Source: Mobula hypostoma
Lineage: Eukaryota
Reading direction: 5' to 3'
Assembly: GCF_963921235.1 (NCBI RefSeq)
Contig: NC_086097.1
Coordinates: 64,916,001-64,980,000, forward strand
Length of the DNA: 64,000 bases
Positions 4,634-61,300 of the stretch are shown here, in pieces. Every line of letters begins with the position of its first letter. The first letter of the stretch is position 1. The notes beneath the pieces were generated by a model. That model was not told the DNA's origin, did no database searches, and saw only the letters and a list, made by a program, of their open reading frames with translations. The translations under genes were made by a program, and so were the position numbers.

Positions 4634-4845
4634 AACAAGAGAAAATCTGCAGATGCTGGAAATCCAATTAACACACACAAAATGCTGGAGGAACTCAGCA
4701 GACCAGGCAGTATCTATGGAAAAAAGTACAGTCGACGTTTTGGGCAGAGCTTTGGCCAAAGGGCTTCAGCCTGAAACGTCGACTGTACTTTTTTTCCATA
4801 GATGCTGCCTTGCCTGCCGAGTTCCTCCAGCATTTTGTGTGTGTT
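4634..4845. mobile_element. Palindromic Penelope-like short element (inverted terminal fragments)
   Basis: Inverted arms at 4670-4740 and 4774-4845; flanking direct repeat GCTGTAATTGATAAGCA (4617-4633) / GCTGTAACTGATAAACA (4846-4862). Confidence 0.75.
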
Positions 4846-17066: not shown

Positions 17067-20000
17067 TAGAAACATAGAAACATAGAAAATAGGTGCAGGA
17101 GTAGGCCATTCGGCCCTTTGAGCCTGCACCGCCATTTATTATGATTATGGCTGATCATCCAACTCAGAACCCCGCCCCAGCCTTCCCTCCATACCCCCTG
17201 ACCCCTGTAGCCACAAGGGCCATATCTAACTCCCTCTTAAACATAGCCAATGAACTGGCCTCAACAGTTTGCTGTGGCAGAGAATTCCACAGATTCACCA
17301 CTCTCTGTGTGAAGAAGTTTTTCCTAATCTCAGTCCTAAAAGGCTTCCCCTCTATCCTCAAACTGTGACCCCTCATTCTGGACTTCCCCAACATCGGGAA
17401 CAATCTTCCTGCATCTAGCCTGTCCAATCCCTTTAGGATCTTATACGTTTCAATCAGATCCCCCCTCAATCTTCTAAATTCCAACGAGTACAAGCCCAGT
17501 TCATCCAGTCTTTCTTCATATGAAAGTCCTGCCATCCCAAGAATCAATCTGGTGAACCTTCTTTGTACTCCCTCTATGGCAAAGATGTCTTTCCTCAGAT
17601 TAGGGGACCAAAACTGCACACAATACTCCAGGTGTGGTCTCACCAAGACCTTGTACAACTGCAGTAGTACCTCCCTGCTCCTGTACTCGAATCCTCTCGC
17701 TATGAATGCCAGCATACCATTCGCCTTTTTCACCGCCTGCTGTACCTGCATGCTCACTTTCAATGACTGGTGTATAATGACACCCAGGTCTCGTTGCACC
17801 TCCCCTTTTCCTAATCGGCCACCATTCAGATAATAATCTGTTTTCCTATTTTTGCCACCAAAGTGGATAACTTCACATTTATCCACATTAAATTGCATCT
17901 GCCATGAGTTTGCCCACTCACCCAACCTATCCAAGTCACCCTGCATCCTCTTAGCATCCTCCTCACTGCTAACACTGCCGCCCAGCTTCGTGTCATCCGC
18001 AAACTTGGAGATGCTGCATTTAATTCCCTCATCCAAGTCATTAATATATATTGTAAACAACTGGGGTCCCAGCACTGAGCCTTGCGGTACCCCACTAGTC
18101 ACCACCTGCCATTCTGAAAAGGTCCCGTTTATTCCCACTCTTTGCTTCCTGTCTGCTAACTAATTCTCCACCCACACCAATACCTTACCCCCAATACCGT
18201 GTGCTTTAAGTTTGCACACTAATCTCCTGTGTGGGACCTTGTCAAAAGCCTTTTGAAAATCCAAATATACCACATCCACTGGTTCTCCCCTATCCACTCT
18301 ACTAGTTACATTCTCAAAAAATTCTATGAGATTCGTCAGACATGATTTTCCTTTCACAAATCCATGCTGACTTTGTCCAATCATTTCTCCGCTTTCCAAA
18401 TGTGCTGTTATCACATCCTTGATAACTGACTCCAGCAGTTTCCCCACCACCGACGTTAGGCTAACCGGTCTATAATTCCCCGGTTTCTCTCTCCCTCCTT
18501 TTTTAAAAATTGGGGTTACATTAGCCACCCTCCAATCCTCAGGAACTAGTCCAGAATCTAACGAGTTTTGAAAAATTATCACTAATGCATCCACTATTTC
18601 TTGGGCTACTTCCTTAAGCACTCTAGGATGCAGACCATCTGGCCCTGGGGATTTATCTGCCTTCAATCCCTTCAATTTACCTAACACCACTTCCCTACTA
18701 ACATGTATTTCACTCAGTTCCTCCATCTCACTGGACTCTCTGTCCCTTACTATTTCTGGAAGATTATTTATGTCCTACTTAGTGAAGACAGAACCAAAGT
18801 AATTATTCAATTGGTCTGCCATGTCCTTGCTCCCCATAATCAATTCACCTGTTTCTGTCTGCAGGGGACCTACATTTGTCTTTACCAGTCTTTTCCTTTT
18901 TACATATCTATAAAAGCTTTTACAGTCCGTTTTTATGTTCTCTGCCAGTTTTCTCTCATAATCTTTTTTCCCCTTCCTAATTAAGCCCTTTGTCCTCCTC
19001 TGCTGAACTCTGAATTTCTCCCAGTCCTCAGGTGAGCCACTTTCTCTGGCTAATTTGTATGCTACTTCTTTGGAATTGATACTATCCCTAATTTCTCTTG
19101 TCAGCCACGGGTGCACTACCTTCCTTGATTTATTCTTTTGCCAAACTGGGATGAACAATTGTTGTAGTTCATCCATGCAACCTATAAATGCTTGCCATTG
19201 CATATCCACCGTCAATCCTTTAAGTGTCATTTGCCAGTCTATCTTAGCTAATTCACGTCTCATACCTTCAAAGTTACCCCTCTTTAAGTTCAGAACCTTT
19301 GTTTCTGAATTAACTATGTCACTCTCCATATTAATGAAGAATTCCACCATATTATGGTCACTCTTACCCAAGGGGCCTCTCACGACAAGATCGCTAATTA
19401 ACCCTTCCTCATTGCTCAAAACCCAGTCAAGAATAGCCTGCTCTCTAGTTGGTTCCTCGACATGTTGGTTCAAAAAACCATCCCGCATACATTCCAAGAA
19501 ATCCTCTTCCTCAGCACCTTTACCAATTTGGTTCACCCAGTCTACATGCAGATTGAAGTCACCCATTATAACTGCTGTTCCTCTATTGCACACATTTCTA
19601 ATTTCCTGTTTAATACCATCTCCGACCTCACTACTACTGTTAGGTGGTCTGTACACAACTCCCACCAGCGTCTTCTGCCCCTTAGTGTTACGCAGCTCTA
19701 CCCATATCGATTCCACATCTTCCCGGCTTATGTCCTTCCTTTCTATTGCGTTAATCTCTTCTTTAACCAGCAACGCCACCCCACCTCCCCTTCCTTCATG
19801 TCTATCCCTCCTGAATATTGAATATCCCTGAACGTTGAGCTCCCATCCCTGGTCACCCTGGAGCCATGTCTCTGTGATCCCAACTATATCATAATCATTA
19901 ATAACAACCTGCACTTTCAATTCATCCACCTTATTACGAATGCTCCTTGCATTGACACATAAAGCCTTCAGGCGCTCTTTTACAACTCTCTTAGCCCTTG

Positions 20001-20137
20001 TACAATTATGTTGAAAAGTGGCCCTTTTTAATGCTTGCCCTGGATTTGTCGGCCTGCCACTTTTACTTTTCTCCTTTGTACTTTTTGCTTCTATGCTCAC
20101 TTTACACCCCTCTGTCTCTCTGCACTGGTTCCCGTCC
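17067..20137 (-). mobile_element. Young CR1-clade LINE with near-intact ORF2 (APE endonuclease + RT), truncated at the ORF1/ORF2 junction
   Basis: ORFs 18775-20139, 18160-18726 and 17164-18138 are all in one frame, separated only by TAG codons at 18777-18775 and 18162-18160. NARS, GITETWL, GDFN, SDH and FADD motifs are present; (TAGAAACA)n tail at 17067-17089. Confidence 0.97.
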
Positions 20138-22459
20138 ATTGTGTGATATGTGTAACTAAAGGAATACTTCGATCCTATTTCAAAAAATGTGTGCCAAAGT
20201 CAGGCTTGGAACATGTTTCTGCACCCTGACTGCTTAATTTTAATTGGAATCATCATTAATTCATCCAGCTCACAAGTAAGTTTAGAAGAATGAATTTTGT
20301 GTTTTTTTCCATAGTGAAGATAAAGCAGTCATATATATTCAAATTATTATGATTTTTAAGAATAGTTTAATATTTCATAAATGAAACTGTAAAATCTTAG
20401 AAAAACAAATGACTACTGCTATATTGACTTAGTGACAGAGAGATCAGAAAAATTCTTCTTTACATAGCACCATAGTAAATTTCATGTCCATATTAACAAG
20501 GATTTTGCTTTTGCTTCATATAAAATAATATTATTAAAGTATCACTTGGTTAATGAAGTTAGGTGTTATTGTAGTGTTTGAATTATTGATCTGAATGGAC
20601 GAGTGTTACCAAAATGTCAAACTTATACTTTACTGGTAAGGTGTAAATATATGTAAGTTCACTGTTACACGTAGGAAATACAATTACAATTAGACTACTG
20701 TTTCTCTGAATAAATAATACTGTGAAAACTACATTACTACTAGAAGTGAAAATGTATATTTGTCAAAATAATTAACAGTGGTTAAAGTATAACAAAATAT
20801 TTTTAGGGTTCATGTTTTCATCAAGTTCATTTTTTTCACTCTGTTCCTGTTGCATATTCAAATTTTTTAAAAGTTGTTAATTAATATGAAAATACATGGC
20901 CATAGACCTATAAGCTGTTAAGGCTATGCAATACCTCAGTATTAAATTTAAATGTTTTCCTAAAATAACATTCAGTACTCTTGGAGGATCTAATAGGCAG
21001 GAACTTTAAAATTTGCCCCCCCATTGCAATAATTGACCTGGCATTCATTCCTTCATTGGAAAACGGTAGTTCTTTTGAAACTTTCATAGTTTGAATCTAT
21101 TTCAGAAGGTCGGAAGTGCTTTGGAATATCTGAAATAGGTAAAAGAACATTTACTAGCTATCACTTTCTTTGCATATAGGTCCAATCTTACAATTTCTTA
21201 AATTTCATATTGTGTGCTATGTTTAGTTTTATTCTTGCAGTGTAAACAATTGTACTTGTTTTTTTATTTCTGAGGCAGTGCATTTGCTTAGTTTGCAGGA
21301 ATCACTATTGTAAAGAACAGTAGATTATGCTTGTTGGAACTTTATGCTGATGTGTATTGTATCCAAGTACCAACATAGTGTTGCCACCCCTTCATCCTAC
21401 ACTTGTGCATCGATCTTTTCAATTACAACAGTAGATCGTCAGACCTTTAAGAATTTGTGAAGTAACTAATGGCGAGACTATCAATGTTTACTCTTATGGG
21501 GACGGAATAGTAACACAGCTTCTGGAGTACTAACATGCACAACTAATTATTGAACTGCCTCGGGTGTCATCCTGTTACCTATATGGGGCTTCTCCACAGA
21601 GGATACCGTTGCATTTGTCACCAACAGTGAGATAATAAAACCAGACAAACTTGCTGACAAAATTGGCCACTACTTCCCAATTAAGAATGATGGAAAAATC
21701 TTAGGCCCGACATATTCAAAGAGCAAAAGCTTTAAATGACATGATAAAGTATAACAGCTATACCTCTGGCACTGAACAAACAATTTAATAAGTATGCATT
21801 CTTCTTTTCTCAAAAAATAGTATGGATTGTTTTTCTTTCATCTTTCATCCCAATTTATGTATGCACTATACATATGAACAAGCATTTGGGAGAGCAGTGG
21901 TACAGATTTGCCAGCTGCTGCAGAGTTATGGGCATCATCAGCCACGTGGGAACTCAGTTCCCGACCACATTTCTGACCTAAAAACAAGTTACATTACAAA
22001 CAGTTCACAGGAAAAGAACCATGGGAAGGACCTGTATCTCTTTTCCTTAATCCAACTCTACTGACGATAGTAATCTTGCTTTCTATCACATGTCCTAATT
22101 TGTATTTCCCATTGTGAACAATGTGCCTAGAAATTGTTATATGCTTTAAAAGGTAACACTGATCTGAGGTTCCATGCTAGTTTTATGCATTTACCGAGAT
22201 TGTACACGTTAATTGTAAAAACAAAGTGCTCAATTTTTGCCTATATTTTATAAAACATGATTAATCCTGAACTTAGGGTGCCAGATTTACCGGTTATAAA
22301 TCATAATACCAAGATTACTGGAAATTTGAAATAAAGCAGAAACTGCTGGTCAGGCCAATAGGTTCGATTCAACAGATCGGGAAACATTTATTAATAGACC
22401 AAGGGTTAATACTTGGTTAATGACCTTATGACTGGATAAAAGGTCACCAGCTTGCCACA

Positions 22460-43618: not shown

Positions 43619-44289
43619 TCACCAGGTCCTACCATACAATAAAGTAGAGCATGACATGGCTGTACCATAATCAGAACTAGAAGAGTTTAGGTGAGACAAG
43701 CTAGTGACGTGGCTTTGGATAGAAGAAGGACTTGCTGCGGTTTGTCCTAATTCCGATGTCTGACCTGCGCTATTTGCTTGCTGACTTGGGCCGTGAGCTG
43801 CCCCACTGGTAGCCACAGTGATGGCGGTAGTTGTAGATTGTTGCTGCTGGGACTGAATGGTGGAGATTGGGGCATTGGCACCTCCTTGGCACGGTTTTCC
43901 ATCTTTAACCAGGACAGGCACAGCCACCCTTCTTGGAGATTGCTGTTGTTGCTGGCAAGTGCTGTTGTCCTGCTGCATGTGTTGTTGCGCCGCTTTGTCC
44001 TTCGCTTGTCGCTTCATCTTGTAGCGGTGGTTCTGGAACCAGATCTTCACCTGAGTGGGCGTGAGATGGATCATACTGGCCAAATGTTCCCTTTCAGGGG
44101 CTGAGAGGTATTTTTGCTGCTTGAAACGCCTCTCTAACTCATAAACCTGGGCTTGAGAGAAAAGCACTCTGCGTTTTCTCCTAGGTGTACTCTGGAGAGG
44201 AGCCATGGGTTTGCCAACGTCTCCCAGAGAACCCAGAGCCCCCATTCCGCCCATGTTCATGCCTGAAGACGGGGCCATGAAGCGGGAAA
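43619..44289 (-). CDS. NKX2-1: NK2 homeobox 1 (TTF-1), second coding exon (homeodomain, NK2-specific domain, C-terminus)
   Basis: Acceptor ...TATTCCCATTCAG| ends at 44290; splicing restores the conserved ISRFM. Contains [26 protein letters not shown]...[11 protein letters not shown] (Tyr54 NK2 homeodomain), [17 protein letters not shown] and the NKX2-1-type end [25 protein letters not shown]. Spliced CDS is 1041 nt = 346 aa. Confidence 0.95.
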
Positions 44290-45252
44290 CTGAATGGGAA
44301 TAAAAGAATAAACTCAGCAAAAACACCTTTGCAATGAGGTAAGTATACATTTTAAAACAACGTAGATACACTTACTGCAGCATTAATGTACTTATCAAAT
44401 ATCCAAGATCCAGTGGTGGCGCGCTCCTACCCCAACCAATTAAACTAACAGTTAGATTACTTCTTTCTGCAGCGAGTTTAAGTGAAACTGACTTCTAAAA
44501 TGTATCTATTAGCAAATGATCAGAGATTTAGTTATTTAAAAATAGACCTATTATTACTTTTTTTAAAAAAAAGGTTGAAATTAGGAATTAAGTATCTTTC
44601 AAAGTTTGAAGTGTACTTCCGCAGAATAAAATGACGCAGAGTATTATATTTGTGCAATTTGTGTACAAATACTATTACGGTTTTCAAATAATATTTGATA
44701 ATAAAATCGTGCAATTTATATTAGATGTATTAACATATGTAAAATATTTATCAATAAAGAGAACATATTGATTCCCTCTGTGCCGGCCTAATATATTTTT
44801 CAATTTAGTTCTTACACTGCTAAATCATGATTTAAATATTTAAATTGTTTAATCTGGGCACGACGGTGCAGCACCTGGAACACAAATGAACTGCTTTGTG
44901 CCGCGAGAAATGATTAAATAACCATGGGCAGGTAACTTGAGTTGTCCATAGATTTACTCCACGAAGCATAAAGATTAGCAATACCAGGAGAATCCGAGAA
45001 TGAAAACTAAGGGCGCAGAAATACAACCGAGTACAAATGCCCCGTGCAATTAGACATTCTTGCTCTAATCTTCTTGAAAATCAAAACACGCTAAACTTAT
45101 CATTTAGAAATGGAGGTGTTGAAGATACTGAATTTTGAACGCCATTTTCATTATTTTAACACAATTAGAATACCTGAAATATCTTTACTATTTCGACAGT
45201 GTGTTATTTAACCCATCGCCTTCACTAGTACACAGACAGTTATTTCACTTAC
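44290..45252 (-). other. NKX2-1: NKX2-1 intron, 963 nt, GT-AG, phase 1
   Basis: Canonical GTAAGT donor and pyrimidine-rich CAG acceptor; frame is preserved across the junction (A|TT = Ile). Confidence 0.92.
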
Positions 45253-45622
45253 TGGATGAAAAGCGTGGGTCTGGATTCGTCCCGTACCAGCTTGTCGCAC
45301 TCGCACTGTTCCTCATGGTATCTTGGTAAGCAGGAAGATCGCCCATGTTGCCAATGTTGCTGTTGCAGTAGCCTCCCATAGCAGCATGTGAAAGCTGGGG
45401 GACCCCGTGTGACATGTGGTAGGTCGCCGCAGGTACCGACGTATTATGTCCGATTGAATGCTGTTGCATTCCCGGCTGGGAGACCTGTGGCTGTCGGTAA
45501 GTTGTCAAGTGAGCGCCGAGGTTACCCGCTGCGTCCATGCCAACTTTCTTGTAGCTCTCCTCGATGGGGCTCAAAATATCTGAAACTGAGAAGGGCGTAG
45601 TGTGCTTGGGGCTCATCGACAT
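45253..45622 (-). CDS. NKX2-1: NK2 homeobox 1 (TTF-1), first coding exon (TN/eh1 domain)
   Basis: Translates [19 protein letters not shown]...[15 protein letters not shown] at 45622-45620; phase-1 donor GTAAGT at 45252-45247 (minus strand); 370 nt. Confidence 0.93.
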
Positions 45623-45905
45623 GGTTCAGCAGCGAAGTAGGCAAATTTGCTGAACGGATAAACAGTGTTATGTTAGCGCCGATCTTGTGGACGTACACGT
45701 AAGAGAGTGATTGAAGTCCGCCTTAATTGTATTAAGTCGAGGCTATAGACCTGCGAGCGCCTAGCTTTTGTTTGTTGTAGCCAGGCGCCAGGTTTTAGAC
45801 AGACAGGAGAGGCGGGGCATGAACGCAAACGAGCAAACAATAGAACTTAACATCTTGCTAAGATAATTAGGTAACATGCTGATGGCAACGTAAATACTTT
45901 CGAGT
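45623..45905 (-). promoter_or_regulatory. NKX2-1: NKX2-1 proximal promoter / 5' UTR
   Basis: Immediately upstream of the ATG; CpG-rich; GC box GAGGCGGGGC near 45809-45818. Blocks TAAAACCTGGCGCC and TTACGTGTAC..CCACAAGATCGGCG (minus strand) resemble the recalled mammalian NKX2-1 proximal promoter. Confidence 0.7.
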
Positions 45906-48900
45906 TTATCTCGCCAATGTATTTTACTTAATGTGAAATATTAAATAACGGAACATTTGAAGGTGTCCATAGGTTCAATACGTTATCTATAAAGGATGTG
46001 CAATAAGGTTTCATTTGGTACTATCAGTGGTTGTGTTTACGTGAAGGTCAGTGTTTAACTCTGACTTTTGATATCATTGATAAAGCCAAGGGATAATTGC
46101 ACTTTAAGATTTTTTTTCACTATCGTTGAGTTATATACTTAAGTAATGTAAAAGTGCACTTGCTTCTTAGGAATAACTAAATATCTTTAGCCAGAGTGGC
46201 AGCATAAATGCTTGTTCGCTTTGTGACTGTGCTCGATATTAATGCACAAGGATCATTTTGCTTCAATTCAGGGGCTCTTATTCAATAGCCAAGAAGTCTT
46301 TCAGGAGAAAGAAGGCTCCCGCATGAGTTAACACCGTTCAAGTGTAAACCTCTGCCCTGATTATACTTAACATCTCTTGGAGAGGCGAGATTTCCACAAG
46401 ATTTGATGTTAGAATTTTATTCTTGAATCCACAAGTTAAAAGACTCTTCCCAGCTTTGAAGTATAGAGTACCATCCATGAATCTAGCGGTGTCTTGACAT
46501 TTATCGTCTAGCTGTGGTGCAAAGTCCACGATTTTGGCCATTTCATTTAAACTAAAGAAACGTAACTAAATTATCCGAAAGAAAACTGCTTTATTTAAAA
46601 AATATTTGAACAAGATGTATTCTGGTCATGAAACATTATTTTAAAATTGCCTTGCATTCACTTTACTTAACCGATATCGTGCAGACCATTTTACCTGCAT
46701 TATGAATTACTCAAGTAGTATGCAGTTAGATTTGATTTATCTATTTATACTATTGCAAGATGCCTTAAAGGTACATTTGTATGTTCCGTGTTCTCTATTC
46801 ATGGCAGTGTCAATAATGTCTTCTATCAATCTCCATCTATTGTTAATTGTATTTATGATAGGTGTGATAAGACCATTTATCACAATCACATCTCCTAAAC
46901 TGCTACTGCCAACTGTGTTTTTGAATATGCGTGGTTTCATCAATCCATTATTTAAAGCTATGTTTCTTTTGCTTTATATCTTTTATAATTGTTTACTTAC
47001 TTTCGAGCCGAGATACTATAGGATAGGATGAAATGTTTGTCAAAGGTTGAAAAATATTCCATGCATAATTAATACTGCAAGTCCTTAAGTCAGTCAACGA
47101 TAGAATCCCAGCTTTGGGAATATAGGTAAATAAAAAATGAAAAACCGGATTAATAACGGACAGTCATTATAATTCTGTATTTAATGTTTAGGTATAATTG
47201 TGCATTGGTTTATGATTATTTGATGATTTTATAACATGTACGTTATTTTAAATTTGCATTATTTTCAATATGGTGTTAACGCTGGTTCTTCTTGAACAAC
47301 AATACGTGTAACAACTTGTAAATAAGTACAGTCACAAAGCGAGTAAGGGTCTGAATGAGATTTTTTGTGCATGAAATATACGCCTGAACTCACCATATTA
47401 TCGAGTGTCATTCTCTTGCTCAGTTTTGGAATTAACCAAAGAAAGATCATATGCAAAGTGGACTTTCATACAATTCTATTCTGAGAAAGGTGGTCCTTTC
47501 TATGGATATATGAACGCCATGGCGGGGAATGAGATTTTTCAAAAGCTTCTGACCTTGCACAATCCAGACGATAACACTAGAGATAGCATACAAATTGTCA
47601 GTCAAACAGTCTCATTTTCAAAGCAAACCGTCACGCCAAAACCAAGGTGTTTCATTCATTGATGTACATGAGATAGACTTCTTCTGAAATTTGATGACCA
47701 ATATAAATCTCAGAAATGTAAGGTGTTTTACACTCAAAAGAACTTTTCTTTTATGAAAACATCAAAAATTTCGAATAAAATTTCAGTTTGTCTCCTGGCC
47801 CTGTGGTCTCACGTATGCGAATCTTCACAATGTAAAGAAGTATAAATTTTAATATGAATCATAACTGTTTGAAAGCTAGTCCAGCAGTTGTTGAGATATG
47901 AAATGTATTAAGTAAATATAATATTCTATTAGCTTCAGAAGAATGAGACTGCATTTTATGTTTCACCTGGCAGTAAGCGATCTGAATAACTGGTCGACAC
48001 AATGGTCAGCCGCACAGAACCGAACCCCTTTAATTGCCTTTTAAGTGTAATTAGTGTTATTATAGTGAAAATCGTAATAGCGATGTAGCAGCGTGTTACG
48101 TTAATTTAGTTTTTTTGATAGCTGAAACATACAGTGAGCTGCTGCTAATTGTTTAGATTTGTTTTGCTATGCTTTGGCAAAAAGGATGTTCATTTTTACA
48201 TTTATCTTTTGATTTTTTTTTACCCTCTCCAGTCAAAGCCTGATGAACACTGAACGCACCATCTTGAATATGCTTGAAAAGTGCAAAGATTTATTCACCG
48301 CTAAAATATTCAATGACATTAAATAAGCATTTAAACTATTTCATATGAAGATTCCTTTTCTAAATTTAACTTAGTTTATCAATCTATATTTTTGTCTGCT
48401 TAAATGGGAGTGGTGTAGTTTGGCCTTGATGTTCGGCGCTGAATCGATGGGCCAAGGAGCCCGCTTCCGTGCCTTACACATTTTACTAATAAAAATGTTT
48501 ACTACCAAATTATATTCAAATGAGTAAATATTTTTTGTCGTGCTAGAGGGACTAAACTGGTACAAGACACAGCGGAAGTCACGAGTAATTCAACTTCAGC
48601 ATCAAGGTTAATTGATAAAATTTCACTCCATGGAAAATACTTTCAATAGCCATATGCTGAAAATTTGCAAGCTGTATAAATATGCGAATCAGGTTCAGAA
48701 TTGGGTAGGCTCTGAGAAAGTAACCGGCGTAATATCCAAGCCTCCGCATCGGCGTTGGACCCAACTTGAAGTCCAGAAACCATTGGGTAGATTTAACAAG
48801 CCAAGTCAGTGTGGACCATTTTTAAACGACGTTCCATGAGACAATACATTTTTGATGATACTGTTTGAAAGTATTAAGGCTGTAATTTTATCCGGGGGCA

Positions 48901-57304: not shown

Positions 57305-60300
57305 TTGAGATCATAAGGGTAGTAATTTCTGGAAAGCTACCTTTGCCTCACACCACTGAGGGTAGAAGCACAATGATTTGGCAGATAAATGCCTGGCTGA
57401 TAAGCTCATGCAGGGGGCAGGGCTTCAGGTTCTTGGATCACTGGGATCTCTTCTGGGGAAGGTATGTCCTGTGCAAAAGGGACGGGTTGCACCTAAACCC
57501 AAGGGGGTCCAATATTCTTGCGTGCAGTTTCGTTAGAGCTGTTGGGGAGGATTTAAACTAATCTGGCAGGGGAATGGGAACTGGATTGAAGGGACTCAGG
57601 ATAGGATGGATGGTAATAAAGCAAAGATAGCGTGCACTCAGACTGTCAGGAAGGGCAAGCAGATGATAGGACAAAATTGCAGCCAGCAGGGTGAGTATCA
57701 GTGCATTAGGGATGCAGATCAAAAACGGTAGCAAATACAGTAATCAAAGTGTCATATCTCAAAGCATGGAGTATAAGAAATAAAGTGGATGATCCTGTGG
57801 TACTTCTACAGATTGTTGTATTTTACTGTGGCCATCACTGAGTTGTGACTGAAAGATGGTTGCGGTTGGGAGCTGAATGCCCAAGGTTACACATTGTATC
57901 GGAGGGAGAGGAAGGTAGGCAGAGGGGGTGGCACGGCTCTGCTGATAAAGAATGGCATCAAATCATTAGGAAGTGGTCACATAGGATTGGAAGATGTTGA
58001 ATCCTTGTGGGCTGAGTTAAGAAACTGCAAGGGTAAAACAACGGAAAATAGAAAAGGCATGTCAAAAGGGCAAGTTATAATAGTTATGGGAGATTTTAAC
58101 ATGCAGACAGATTGGGTAAATCAGGTTGGTAATGGATCTCAAGAGAGTGAATTTGTTGAATACCTATGAGGTGGTTTTTAGAGCAGTTTGTCATTGAGCC
58201 TACTGTGGGATCAGCTATACTGGATTGGGTGTTATGTAATAAACCCGAGGTGATTAGGGAACTTAAGGTAAAGGAAACCTTAGGAGTCAGTGCTCACAAT
58301 ACGACTGAGTTCAACTTGAAATTTGATATGAAGAAAGTAAAGTCTGATGTAGCAGTACTTCAGTGGAGTAAAGGAAATTGCAGTGGCATGAGAGAGAAGT
58401 GGCCAAAATAAATTGGAAGGAGATGCTGGCCAGGATGACAGCAGAGCAGTAATGGTTTGAGTTTCTGGGAAAAATGTGGAAGGCGCAGGATAGATGTATT
58501 CCAGAAACAAAGAAATACTCAAATGGCTGACCAGGGAAGTCAAAGCTAATGTAAAAGCAAAAGAGAGGACATACGACAAAGCAAAAATTAGTGGCAAGAT
58601 AGAGGATTGGAAAGCTTTTAAAAACCTACAGAAGGCAACTAAAAGAATCATTAGGAGGGAGAAGATGAAATACAAAAGCAAGCTAGCAAACAATATCAAG
58701 GTGGATAGAAAAAGCTTTTTCAAGTATATAAAAAATAAAAGAGAGATGAGAGTGGATATAGGACTGATAGAAAATTAGGCTGGAGAAATAATAATGGGGG
58801 ACAAGGAGATGGCAGATGAACTAAATCAATATTTTGCATCAGTCTTCACTGTGGAAGAGACTAGCAGTGTGCCAGGTGTTGAATGGTGTGAGAGAAGAGA
58901 AGTGAGTGCAATTACTATTACAAGAAAGAAGGTGCTCAAATATCTGAAAGATTTAAAGGTACATAAGTCACCCGAACCAGATGAACTGCACACTAGAGTT
59001 CTGATAGAGATAGCAGCAGAGATTGTGGTAGATAATGATATTTCAAGAATCATTGGGTTCTGGCTGGTTCTGGAGGACTGAAAAATTGCAAATGTCATTC
59101 CACTCTTTAAAAAAGGAAATTATAGACCAGTAAGCCTGACCTCAGTGGTTGGAAAGATGTTGAAGTTAATTGTTAAGGATGAGGTTATGGAGTACTTGGT
59201 GACACAGGACAAAATAGGACAAAGTCAGCATGATTTCCTTAAGGGAAAATCTTGTTTGACAAACCTGTTGGAATTCTTTGAGGATATTACACCTAGGATA
59301 GATAAAGGGGATGCAGTGAATGTTGCATATTTGGATTATCAGGAGGCCTTTGACAAGGTGCCACACAGGAGACTGCCTACCAAGTTAAGAGCCGAAAGTA
59401 TTACAGGAAAGTTACCAGCGTGGTTGGAGCATGGTAGGAGGCAGTGAGTGGGAATAAAAGTATCCTTTTCTAGTTGGCTGCAAGTGGCTAGTGGTGTTCT
59501 GCAGGGGTCGGTGTTGGGAACCACTTCTTTTTATGCTGTTTGTCAGTGATTTGGATGATGGAATAGATGGCTTTGTCATCAGGTTTTCAGATGATACAAA
59601 GATTGGTGGATGGGCAGGGAGTGTTGAGGAAACAGGAAGGATGCAGAAAGACTTAGACAGATTAGGAAAATGGGCAAGAAAGTGGCAAATGAAATACCAA
59701 GTTGGAAAATGCATGGTCATGCACTTTGGTAGAAGAAGTAAATGTGCAGACTATTTTCTAAATGGGGAGAAAATTCAAAAATCTGAGATGCAAAGGGATT
59801 TGGGAGTCCTTGTATAGAACAACCTAAAGGTTAACTTGCAAGTTGAGTTGGAGGTGAGGAAGGCAAATAGAATGTTAGCATTCATTTCAAGAGGTCTGGA
59901 ATACAAGAGCAGGGATGTGATGCTGAGGCTCTATAAGGCACTGGTGAGGCTTCACCTTGTGAACAATTTTGGACTCCTCATCTAAAAAAAGATGTGCTGG
60001 CATTGGAGAGGGTCCAGAGGGGGTTCAGAAGATGATTCCAAGAATTAAAGGGTTATCCTATGAGGAACATTTGATGGCTCTGGGTCTGTACTCAGTAGAA
60101 TTTAGAAGGATGAGGGGGGAATTTAATTGAAACCTATCCATTGTTGAAAGGCCCAGACAAAGTAGATGTGGAAAGGATGTTTCCCATGCTGGGGGAGTCT
60201 AGGATAAGAGGCACAGCCTCAGGATAGGTAGGTGTCCTATTAAAACAGAAGTGAGGAGAAATTTCTTTAGCCAGAGGGTGGTGAATTTGTGGAATTTGTT

Positions 60301-60509
60301 ACTGCAGGCAGCTGTGGAGGTAAGTCGTTTGGTATATTTAAGGCGTAGATTGATAGGTTTTTCATTGGCCATGGCATCAAAGGCTACAGGTAGAAGGTCA
60401 GGGAGTAGGGCTGAGGAGGGGAAAAAAATAGGATCAGGCAAGGTTGAATGGCAGAGCAGTCTTGATAGGCCAAATGCCCTAAATCTACTGCTGTGTCTTA
60501 TGGTCTTAT
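57305..60509 (+). mobile_element. CR1-clade LINE with the ORF1 3' end (SGNH esterase-like) and a decayed ORF2
   Basis: ORF1 end FLDHWDLFWGR...RDGLHLNPRGSNILA...EDLN* (stop 57559-57561); EN and RT motifs in fragmented ORFs 57894-60514; (CTTATGGT)n tail at ~60494-60509. Confidence 0.95.
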
Positions 60510-61300
60510 CATAAGACACAAGAGGAGAATCAGGCCATTCAGCCCATTGAGACTGCTCTGCCATTCCATTATAGCTGATTTGTTTTCCTATTCTCGTACC
60601 TTCTCCTCATTACGTCTGATGCCCTTACTAATTAAGAACCCATTACTCTTTGCTTTAAGTATTTATTTGTCATAATCACATTTACCATTTTCCTCTACCA
60701 TCTGACTTACGTCTCTAGCAAAAAGGAAATGTCTCCAGTTTCTCAAAACTGCTCCGTCATTCAATATGATTGTGGATGGTCTGATCTCAGTTTCAGTTCC
60801 AATTTCTTGTCAATTTTCCTCAATCCTTGACTTCCGTACAATGCAAAAATCTATCTTCCTCTTGGATATTTTCAGTGATTCATCTGTCCTATCTAACTAG
60901 GATGGAGAATTTCCAAGATTCATGATTGTCAGGGAGAAGAATCACATCCCAGTCTTAAAGAAGCAACCCTTATCCTGAAACAGTGCTGTCTATTTCTAGT
61001 TTTTCCATGACAGGAAACATGGTCCCAGTGAGTACGCTGTAGGCACCTTTAGTATCTCAAATGTTGCAATTAGCTCACTTTTCATTTCTTTTGATTCCAA
61101 TAAGTATAGCCCTATCTTGATCAATCATTCATCTTTACAGCAATCTTCTCATCCCAAGCACCAACATATTGAATTCCTCTGAACTGCCTCCAATCTGTGC
61201 TCAGATTTGAAGACCAGACAATCTACTGGAGTGTCTCAGCACCCAGTACACCAGGTGCCAGCTCACTTACAGGTACAGAAAGTTTTAGCTACTTTGTACT
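60510..61300 (-). mobile_element. CR1-clade 3' fragments (a short tip at 60510-60660 and an older piece at ~60720-61300)
   Basis: Reverse-strand similarity to CR1 3' ends; the tip abuts the previous element tail-to-tail. Confidence 0.65.

Follow-up and report, generated by a model that had tools for sequence, protein, structure and literature searches.

Several CR1-type LINE copies are present in the window, which is the whole 64-kb stretch of vertebrate DNA analysed in this work. The features of the copy under study, together with a younger copy, are collected in Table 1. The match of the ORF1 remnant to PF13472 (E=1.5e-4) is under the curated cut-off of Pfam, and 17 ORF1-type proteins match the remnant at 55-68% identity, the nine named ones being from rays, skates and sawfish. 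Concerning ORF2, tblastn aligns the decayed reading frame of the window copy along the entire ORF2 of the young copy. Moreover, the junction between ORF1 and ORF2 matches published rows labelled LINE/CR1, the published row HypSab_CR1-6b is close to it when both are compared by eye, and the named vertebrate proteins cluster in the ORF1 tree. The window copy is a vertebrate CR1 LINE with an esterase ORF1 and an APE-RT ORF2, and it is dead. The esterase ORF1 followed by the APE-RT ORF2 is the likeness that it bears to the vertebrate CR1 LINEs of the literature, where these elements appear as CR1 subgroup 7 with ORF1 type IVB (PMC4120745) or as canonical CR1 (PMC13343379).

Table 1. Features of the window CR1 copy and of the younger CR1 copy, with positions counted in the window
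Feature	Position	Strand	Basis
CR1 ORF1 3' remnant with SGNH esterase domain, ending ...GEDLN*	57313..57561	+	Pfam PF13472 and homologues
Slippery heptamer U_UUA_AAC (TTTAAAC) in ORF1 phase	57552..57558	+	
ORF1 stop TAA, abutting the heptamer; TAG in most relatives	57559..57561	+	
-1 (ORF2) frame linker of 59 codons, closed by TAG at 57729	57552..57731	+	
G-rich GGGG-AAT-GGG, spaced 10 nt from the heptamer, candidate 3' stimulator locked in position	57569..57578	+	
In-frame ATG, no family feature	57606..57608	+	Reads: 57607 T>C at 62, 50, 44 and 80% of depth; 57608 G>A at 26-55%
In-frame ATG, 37 codons past the heptamer	57663..57665	+	No variant among the 40 of 157 variant rows listed
Remains of ORF2 (APE endonuclease, reverse transcriptase) with the 3' end of the window CR1 copy	57732..60509	+	tblastn/blastn against the young copy; Pfam PF03372
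Younger copy from a different CR1 family; its 5' truncation lies a few codons past the junction, heptamer region absent	17164..20139	-	

The first-pass annotation of this DNA had placed TTTAAAC in the X_XXY_YYZ phase right before the ORF1 stop, and this is how the sequence reads: ORF1 ends GAT TTA AAC TAA, with the heptamer one codon ahead of the stop. It had also described a -1 frame that stays open until an indel at the start of the endonuclease. The translation of this frame from 57552 is indeed FKLIWQGNGNW..., and the indel could be placed. Related contigs, from 4 of 24 public runs, carry an additional A at 57717 or diverge from the window copy at 57718, so a 1-nt indel of the window copy itself is located near 57717; the TAG that closes the linker is due to this indel, and the endonuclease resumes in the neighbouring frame. 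On the other hand, TTTAAAC alone is common, occurring 15 times on the plus strand and 9 times on the minus strand of the 64 kb, and therefore a single copy is little proof and the weight has to come from conservation. The longer motif TTTAAACTAR is found twice in the window, at 46546 and 57552.

Conservation of the heptamer at the ORF1 end

With an amniote-type ORF1 profile, 47 loci were found; most end before the junction, and 18 reach the junction region. L019 was left out since its junction is deleted, and the remaining 17 loci plus the window copy form a set of 18 copies chosen by ORF1 homology. The 17 loci are termed avian-type since their linkers resemble those of stork gene models. All 18 copies share ancestry, so the counts that follow are not independent.

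The third base of the codon preceding Leu is T in every one of the 18 copies, though this codon encodes C, S, A, T, I or D. For the five of those six amino acids that were counted, 15-52% of background codons end in T. The Leu codon is TTA in 17 of the 18. By comparison, TTA makes up 31/490 Leu codons (6%) in the rest of the ORF1s, counted over 46 loci, and 14/91 in the young shark-type ORF2. The Asn codon is AAC in 13/13 and never AAT, with a background of 37/79 elsewhere in the ORF1s and 14/46 in the young ORF2. The full heptamer is intact in 13 copies, and the remaining five are degenerate. In the reads, none of the 40 variant rows listed (of 157) falls in 57552-57562, which sets a weak bound on heptamer variation. 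In the same contigs, synonymous changes are seen in Leu and Asn codons close by (57489, 57495, 57498 and 57519), and a change at 57551 turns the preceding Asp to Gly with the T retained.

Motif searches covered the published consensus sequences in Supplementary Table 2 of PMC13343379, apparently only up to nucleotide 400 of each row. TTTAAACTA gave 23 matches, 17 of them at the ORF1 end as placed by eye from the flanks, in rows of eel, bowfin, frog, coelacanth, elephant shark, sharks, rays, alligator and crocodile. The 18 synonymous variants followed by TAA or TAG gave 44 matches in the first 400 nt per row, none of them at the ORF1 end. One more row retains TTTAAAC without the TA after it. 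These counts are those of motif searches, from which rows with a wholly different junction would escape, and anchors upstream of the junction gave only two informative rows in the same table. The searched files of the supplement to PMC4316615 (Suh 2015) held matches only in the 3' part of ORF2. CR1 hosts with the junction signal comprise sharks, fish, frogs, reptiles and birds.

The first-pass annotation had asked whether synonymous variants occur at the junction. Among the published rows 17 are canonical versus 0 synonymous, in line with the codon counts of the 18 copies, and the heptamer is conserved at the nucleotide level, beyond Leu-Asn coding.

The C-termini of the ORF1 proteins were also compared. 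From 255 homologues found by whole-ORF1 similarity, 200 reach the catalytic block; 183 of these have a tail of 20-45 aa, and the 17 with a longer or shorter tail were set aside. The 183 proteins end in LN (131), GN (9) or KN (2), so that 52 do not end in LN and 41 have none of the three endings, and in the subset with a 26-aa tail LN is the end of 110/116. The named LN-ending proteins are from sharks, rays, coelacanth, a teleost, frogs, turtles, a snake and a lizard. Fourteen different residues precede LN, and those whose codons cannot end in T (E, K, Q, M and W) account for 3/131. Among representatives with less than 60% identity these five residues precede LN in 0/28, versus 19% at positions -4 to -10, a protein test of position -3 that is partly confounded by helix periodicity, as these residues are scarce at -6 and -10 too (1/28 and 2/28). 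One real family of four sequences ends in RELN, and therefore the X of the heptamer is not always U; this family may carry a G_UUA variant, and a G_UUA-type site is used by equine arteritis virus (PMC5009743).

In a distant ORF1 clade the ends alternate between xLN, QGN (Q in 9/9) and SKN (2/2), which are interleaved on the tree, and one FLN protein forks with two QGN proteins at a supported node. Back-translated, these ends would fit U_UUA_AAC, G_GGA_AAC and A_AAA_AAC, all of which PMC5009743 counts among its four most shifty heptamers. The near-terminal W-G-F of one protein would fit the fourth, G_GGU_UUU, and this is suggestive only. DNA for the QGN/SKN group was sought, with four weak bacterial matches as the only result. 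Scans with the shark-type profile returned no CR1 DNA from metagenome or GTDB contigs, and the same profile gave only four weak unrelated matches in viral contigs.

Reading frame, start codons and the downstream element

Upstream of the heptamer the -1 frame meets a stop in all 18 copies, and no ATG lies between this stop and the heptamer. As the frame is closed upstream and free of ATG, the F-K-L encoded at the heptamer cannot start from an upstream AUG. From the heptamer into the endonuclease, the -1 frame is open for 632 codons in L005, 94 in L006, 953 in L007, at least 160 in L012 and 438 in L015. Five stork gene models place 95-97 aa between FKL and the endonuclease motif, and their first Met stands about 12-14 aa ahead of the motif; two Hypanus models read on from GFKL, with a Met 65 residues further on in one and 20 in the other. 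Fused gene models were dropped as natural fusions, being probably single broken copies or spliced predictions, and served only to read the -1 frame.

The position of start codons is more varied. An in-frame ATG stands at codon 4 or 5 in 7/18 copies, including four of the five open avian-type copies, and GTG or TTG stands at codon 5 in four further copies. TAATG, an AUG overlapping the ORF1 stop, is found in three published shark rows and also in the reads, where 57563 C>G reaches 6, 22, 61 and 10% of depth in four runs. These data point to an AUG near the stop that exceeds chance Met use and that has several origins. The first Met of L015 is codon 23, the alligator rows have no AUG among the first codons, and the window copy itself reads TAATC, with no AUG at the ORF1 stop; a stop-adjacent AUG is absent in 11/18 copies. 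As to whether there is a conserved ORF2 AUG, which the first-pass annotation had expected to be absent, none is common to all lineages, but the AUG at codon 4 or 5 and the TAATG of some shark families leave this expectation only partly upheld.

The two in-frame ATGs that the same annotation had reported in the window copy are both present (Table 1). The one at 57606 looks like CpG decay and is probably a former ACG, and the one at 57663 may be common to the subfamily of the window copy. Furthermore, the young copy had been offered as an argument from its missing Met. Its ORF2 comprises 991 codons from the D at 20136, with two internal stops, and begins D-G-N-Q; the linker part is Met-free, and the first Met is indeed codon 191, in IMGDFN. 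However, this says nothing against an ORF2 AUG, because the truncation of the young copy lies downstream of the position of TAATG in ScyCan_CR1-1a, its nearest published relative, in which TAATG is seen at the junction by eye. Canonical heptamers in phase number 0 in the 991 codons of the young ORF2.

The G-runs noted earlier after the heptamer are confirmed as GGGG-AAT-GGG. The first G-run begins exactly 10 nt past the site in 12/17 copies, and the same spacing is found in alligator, crocodile, sawfish and catshark rows. Codon 7 of the ORF2 frame is GGG in 14/17 copies, versus 56/166 Gly codons elsewhere, while the linker otherwise varies from about 37 to more than 100 residues. Folding of the sequence after the heptamer, by a method that does not model pseudoknots, gave no stable structure in any of 17 copies (z between -1.83 and +1.58), a set in which L048 was placed 7 nt off register. 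The G4Hunter-type score is 1.52, a value that 1/57 ORF2 tiles equal or exceed, and quadruplex prediction is positive in 2/17 copies. Heptamers that lack a stimulator shift poorly, and the want of a stable fold counts against frameshifting at this site. The position and sequence of the G-tract suggest that it could be such a 3' stimulator, or it may instead reflect a requirement of the linker for Gly.

Weighing the explanations

The codon counts and frames described above would be explained by -1 programmed ribosomal frameshifting, which we consider the likely main route by which vertebrate CR1s with an esterase ORF1 make their ORF2 protein, as an ORF1-ORF2 fusion. Termination and reinitiation at an overlapping or adjacent AUG (UAAUG, UAGnnAUG) or at a near-cognate codon would give free ORF2p instead, with the heptamer and the G-tract as positioning signals. 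The AUG, GTG and TTG codons at positions 4 and 5 speak for it, as does TAATG in shark rows and reads, a position at which the family of the window copy has ATC or ATT. It also has a precedent in SART1, with UAAUG and a downstream structure (PMC5972666, PMC3894237), and L1 tolerates the loss of the ORF2 AUG (PMC1965478). Nevertheless, reinitiation predicts neither a slippery heptamer in the exact phase, nor a T fixed across six amino acids, nor the switching between xLN, QGN and SKN, and stork, alligator and ray lineages lack an AUG there. It is the main rival to frameshifting, though an unlikely explanation of the junction as a whole, and in the subfamilies that bear an AUG it may take place beside frameshifting.

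Very unlikely, in our judgement, is a role of the motif outside decoding, as a cis-element of the DNA or RNA (an internal promoter, a packaging site, a binding site of ORF1p or RT, or a processing signal) that overlaps the stop by accident. Such an element would fit the strong nucleotide conservation, the read-depth peak at 57545-57574 (in run X9, 209k versus 42k at 57515-57529), the presence of TTTAAACTAR in two published shark rows within the AT-rich 5' UTR, and the finding of no fold after the site, but it would not fix the phase to both reading frames in 18/18 copies, nor keep the putative swaps within X_XXY_YYZ. That ORF1p merely requires a terminal Leu-Asn, its codons being inherited or due to codon bias, is likewise very unlikely. 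Leu at -2 does fall in step with the hydrophobic positions of the last helix (-10, -6, -2), and all copies have a common ancestry. However, TTA would not be expected at the junction of nearly all copies from its small share of ORF1 Leu codons, and the neighbouring Leu and Asn codons are synonymously variable in the same contigs. Moreover, the ORF1 family profile matches the ZfL2-1 esterase 4C1B with E=1e-47, in an alignment that reaches residue 169 of 171 with LN absent, and two ORF1 clades of seven rows each also have no such ending, so the esterase fold does not need LN. The last five residues of ORF1 are coil in a predicted structure, a weak point given the low confidence of the model (mean pLDDT 59.5). 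Protein constraint as the only explanation is largely refuted here. Two further candidates were discarded along the way: an AG splice acceptor, as the stop alternates between TAA and TAG, and a TURBS-like UGGGA, which lies downstream of the stop and is absent from avian-type copies.

Proposed recoding mechanism and relation to known systems

In the proposed frameshift, UUA would occupy the P site and AAC the A site, and both tRNAs would move back by one base on U_UUA_AAC, one codon ahead of the ORF1 stop. The majority of ribosomes would terminate and release ORF1p, and a minority would read on in the -1 frame to give a fusion of ORF1p, linker, endonuclease and RT. The G-rich tract, with its fixed 10-nt spacer, would be the likely 3' stimulator, acting more likely as a linear protein-binding site or a G-quadruplex than as a pseudoknot. 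The idea of the first-pass annotation that CR1s may make an esterase-EN-RT fusion gains support from the conserved heptamer and the open -1 frame, from which we infer the frameshifting itself.

The same annotation had recognised UUUAAAC as the coronavirus slippery heptamer, and this is correct, since the coronavirus IBV uses U_UUA_AAC (PMC5009743). Nidovirus -1 frameshifting and retroviral gag-pol share with CR1 the heptamer and its phase at the end of the 5' ORF and the polymerase in the -1 frame (PMC5009743); CR1 differs in that folding found no pseudoknot or hairpin, that the stop is immediate and that the host is a non-LTR retrotransposon. At the nsp2 site of PRRSV, trans-activation is by nsp1beta and PCBP at CCCANCUCC, 11 nt 3' of the shift site (PMC5009743). 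The likeness to CR1, as an analogy only, is a short linear motif at a nearly equal fixed distance; the PRRSV motif is C-rich and has binding factors, whereas that of CR1 is G-rich and is a candidate judged by its sequence.

Among LINEs, ORF2 of the Dictyostelium elements TRE5-A and TRE3-A is stated to require a -1 frameshift (PMC5911963). These are likewise APE-type non-LTR elements, but they are not CR1, and the legend in PMC5911963 gives neither heptamer nor assay. Because of this statement, a -1 frameshift is no new idea for the LINE class as a whole. SART1, which couples its ORFs by UAAUG, and mammalian L1, which uses termination-reinitiation, resemble CR1 in their bicistronic LINE RNA, and some CR1 subfamilies also have UAAUG with a conserved downstream element; they differ in making free ORF2p, in that a slippery heptamer is not part of their published description in the sources used, and, for L1, in a spacer of 63 nt. 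The 1997 papers on chicken CR1 and turtle PsCR1 reportedly describe two ORFs and may comment on the junction. They lie outside the literature searched, and a prior remark is possible; within that literature, including the parts of PMC3905857, PMC2881922, PMC11835228 and PMC4316615 that it covers, no report of CR1 frameshifting was found. The word frameshift does not occur in the main texts of PMC4120745 and PMC13343379, nor do overlap and slippery in that of PMC13343379, and CR1 goes unmentioned in the first 300,000 of the 449,034 characters of PMC5009743.

The deeply conserved signal is real, in a dead copy of a known element, and a frameshift mechanism at the CR1 junction is probable on the codon, phase and frame data. 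A wider reading, which we hold tentatively and would sooner doubt than accept in all its parts, is that the LINE dominant in most vertebrates has carried a -1 signal at its ORF1/ORF2 junction since before the split of sharks and birds, with swaps among the best-known heptamers in distant relatives. The stimulator would be the G-tract at +10 nt, acting via a host G-tract protein, ORF1p or a G-quadruplex and not via a pseudoknot, and the product would form a gag-pol-style RNP in which the esterase is covalently joined to EN-RT, while some subfamilies would have repeatedly gained an AUG for free ORF2p too.

The production of LINE ORF2p is treated as open in the reviews, in which reinitiation is the sole tested route (PMC2881922, PMC5972666, PMC3894237), and in most vertebrates CR1 dominates among the retrotransposon groups (PMC13343379). 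If frameshifting at the junction is true, it would join the natural examples of recoding in vertebrate cells, as a very widespread one. It might also provide a natural G-tract or G-quadruplex stimulator, of a kind that PMC5009743 (2016) calls anticipated rather than known. Moreover, CR1 ORF2 would be mis-annotated when it is started from an internal Met, screens for intact CR1 should include the junction, and engineered CR1 assays may need the fusion.

Variant ORF1 endings

One CR1 family, represented by four ORF1 (SGNH esterase) homologs (P0111, P0119, P0283 and P0284), ends ORF1 in RRELN, which makes a junction heptamer with an initial U impossible; judging from this ending, the family may possibly carry G_UUA_AAC instead. 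The more distant ORF1 proteins P0155, P0178, P0179, P0188 and P0249 present xFF[H/R/G] or WGFLGRV at their C-termini, and U-rich or G_GGU_UUU slip sites could lie slightly 5' of the stop. P0030 is annotated as an SGNH hydrolase of Pseudomonas aeruginosa on a 4.2-kb contig. Its sequence is that of a shark-type CR1 ORF1 ending in REGLN, and its presence in a bacterial record is probably due to host contamination.

Junction motif in published consensus rows and downstream hairpin

In the supplement of PMC13343379, the SquAca_CR1-3 and SquAca_CR1-18 consensus rows also show TTTAAACTAR ahead of the ORF1 start, within an AT-rich 5' UTR, either by chance or as a second use of the motif. AldAff_Crack-2, labelled LINE/Crack in the same supplement, carries the CR1 junction motif where its ORF1, of the esterase type, ends, and this row is possibly mislabelled.

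Six avian-type copies (L006, L007, L015, L022, L030 and L041) share a short hairpin of the AGGC...GCCT type about 27-50 nt 3' of the heptamer, a more distal position than that of a usual stimulator. This hairpin was not seen in the window CR1 copy carrying the heptamer.

CR1 copies and a putative NK2-type gene in the window

The 'young' CR1 copy, of another family, is not intact, since its 991-codon ORF2 has two in-frame stops at 18775 and 18160 (-), codons 454 and 659. The first self-inverted match tabulated is located at the meeting point of the 3' end of the heptamer-bearing copy and an opposite-strand repeat end.

Additional features of the window
Feature	Position	Strand
Self-inverted match	60446-60566	
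Self-inverted match	4670-4845	
Two ORFs (NK2-type homeodomain and N-terminal domain)	43619-45625	(-)

The two NK2-type ORFs resemble the exons of an NKX2-1 gene, and the pair is bordered by several CR1 copies.
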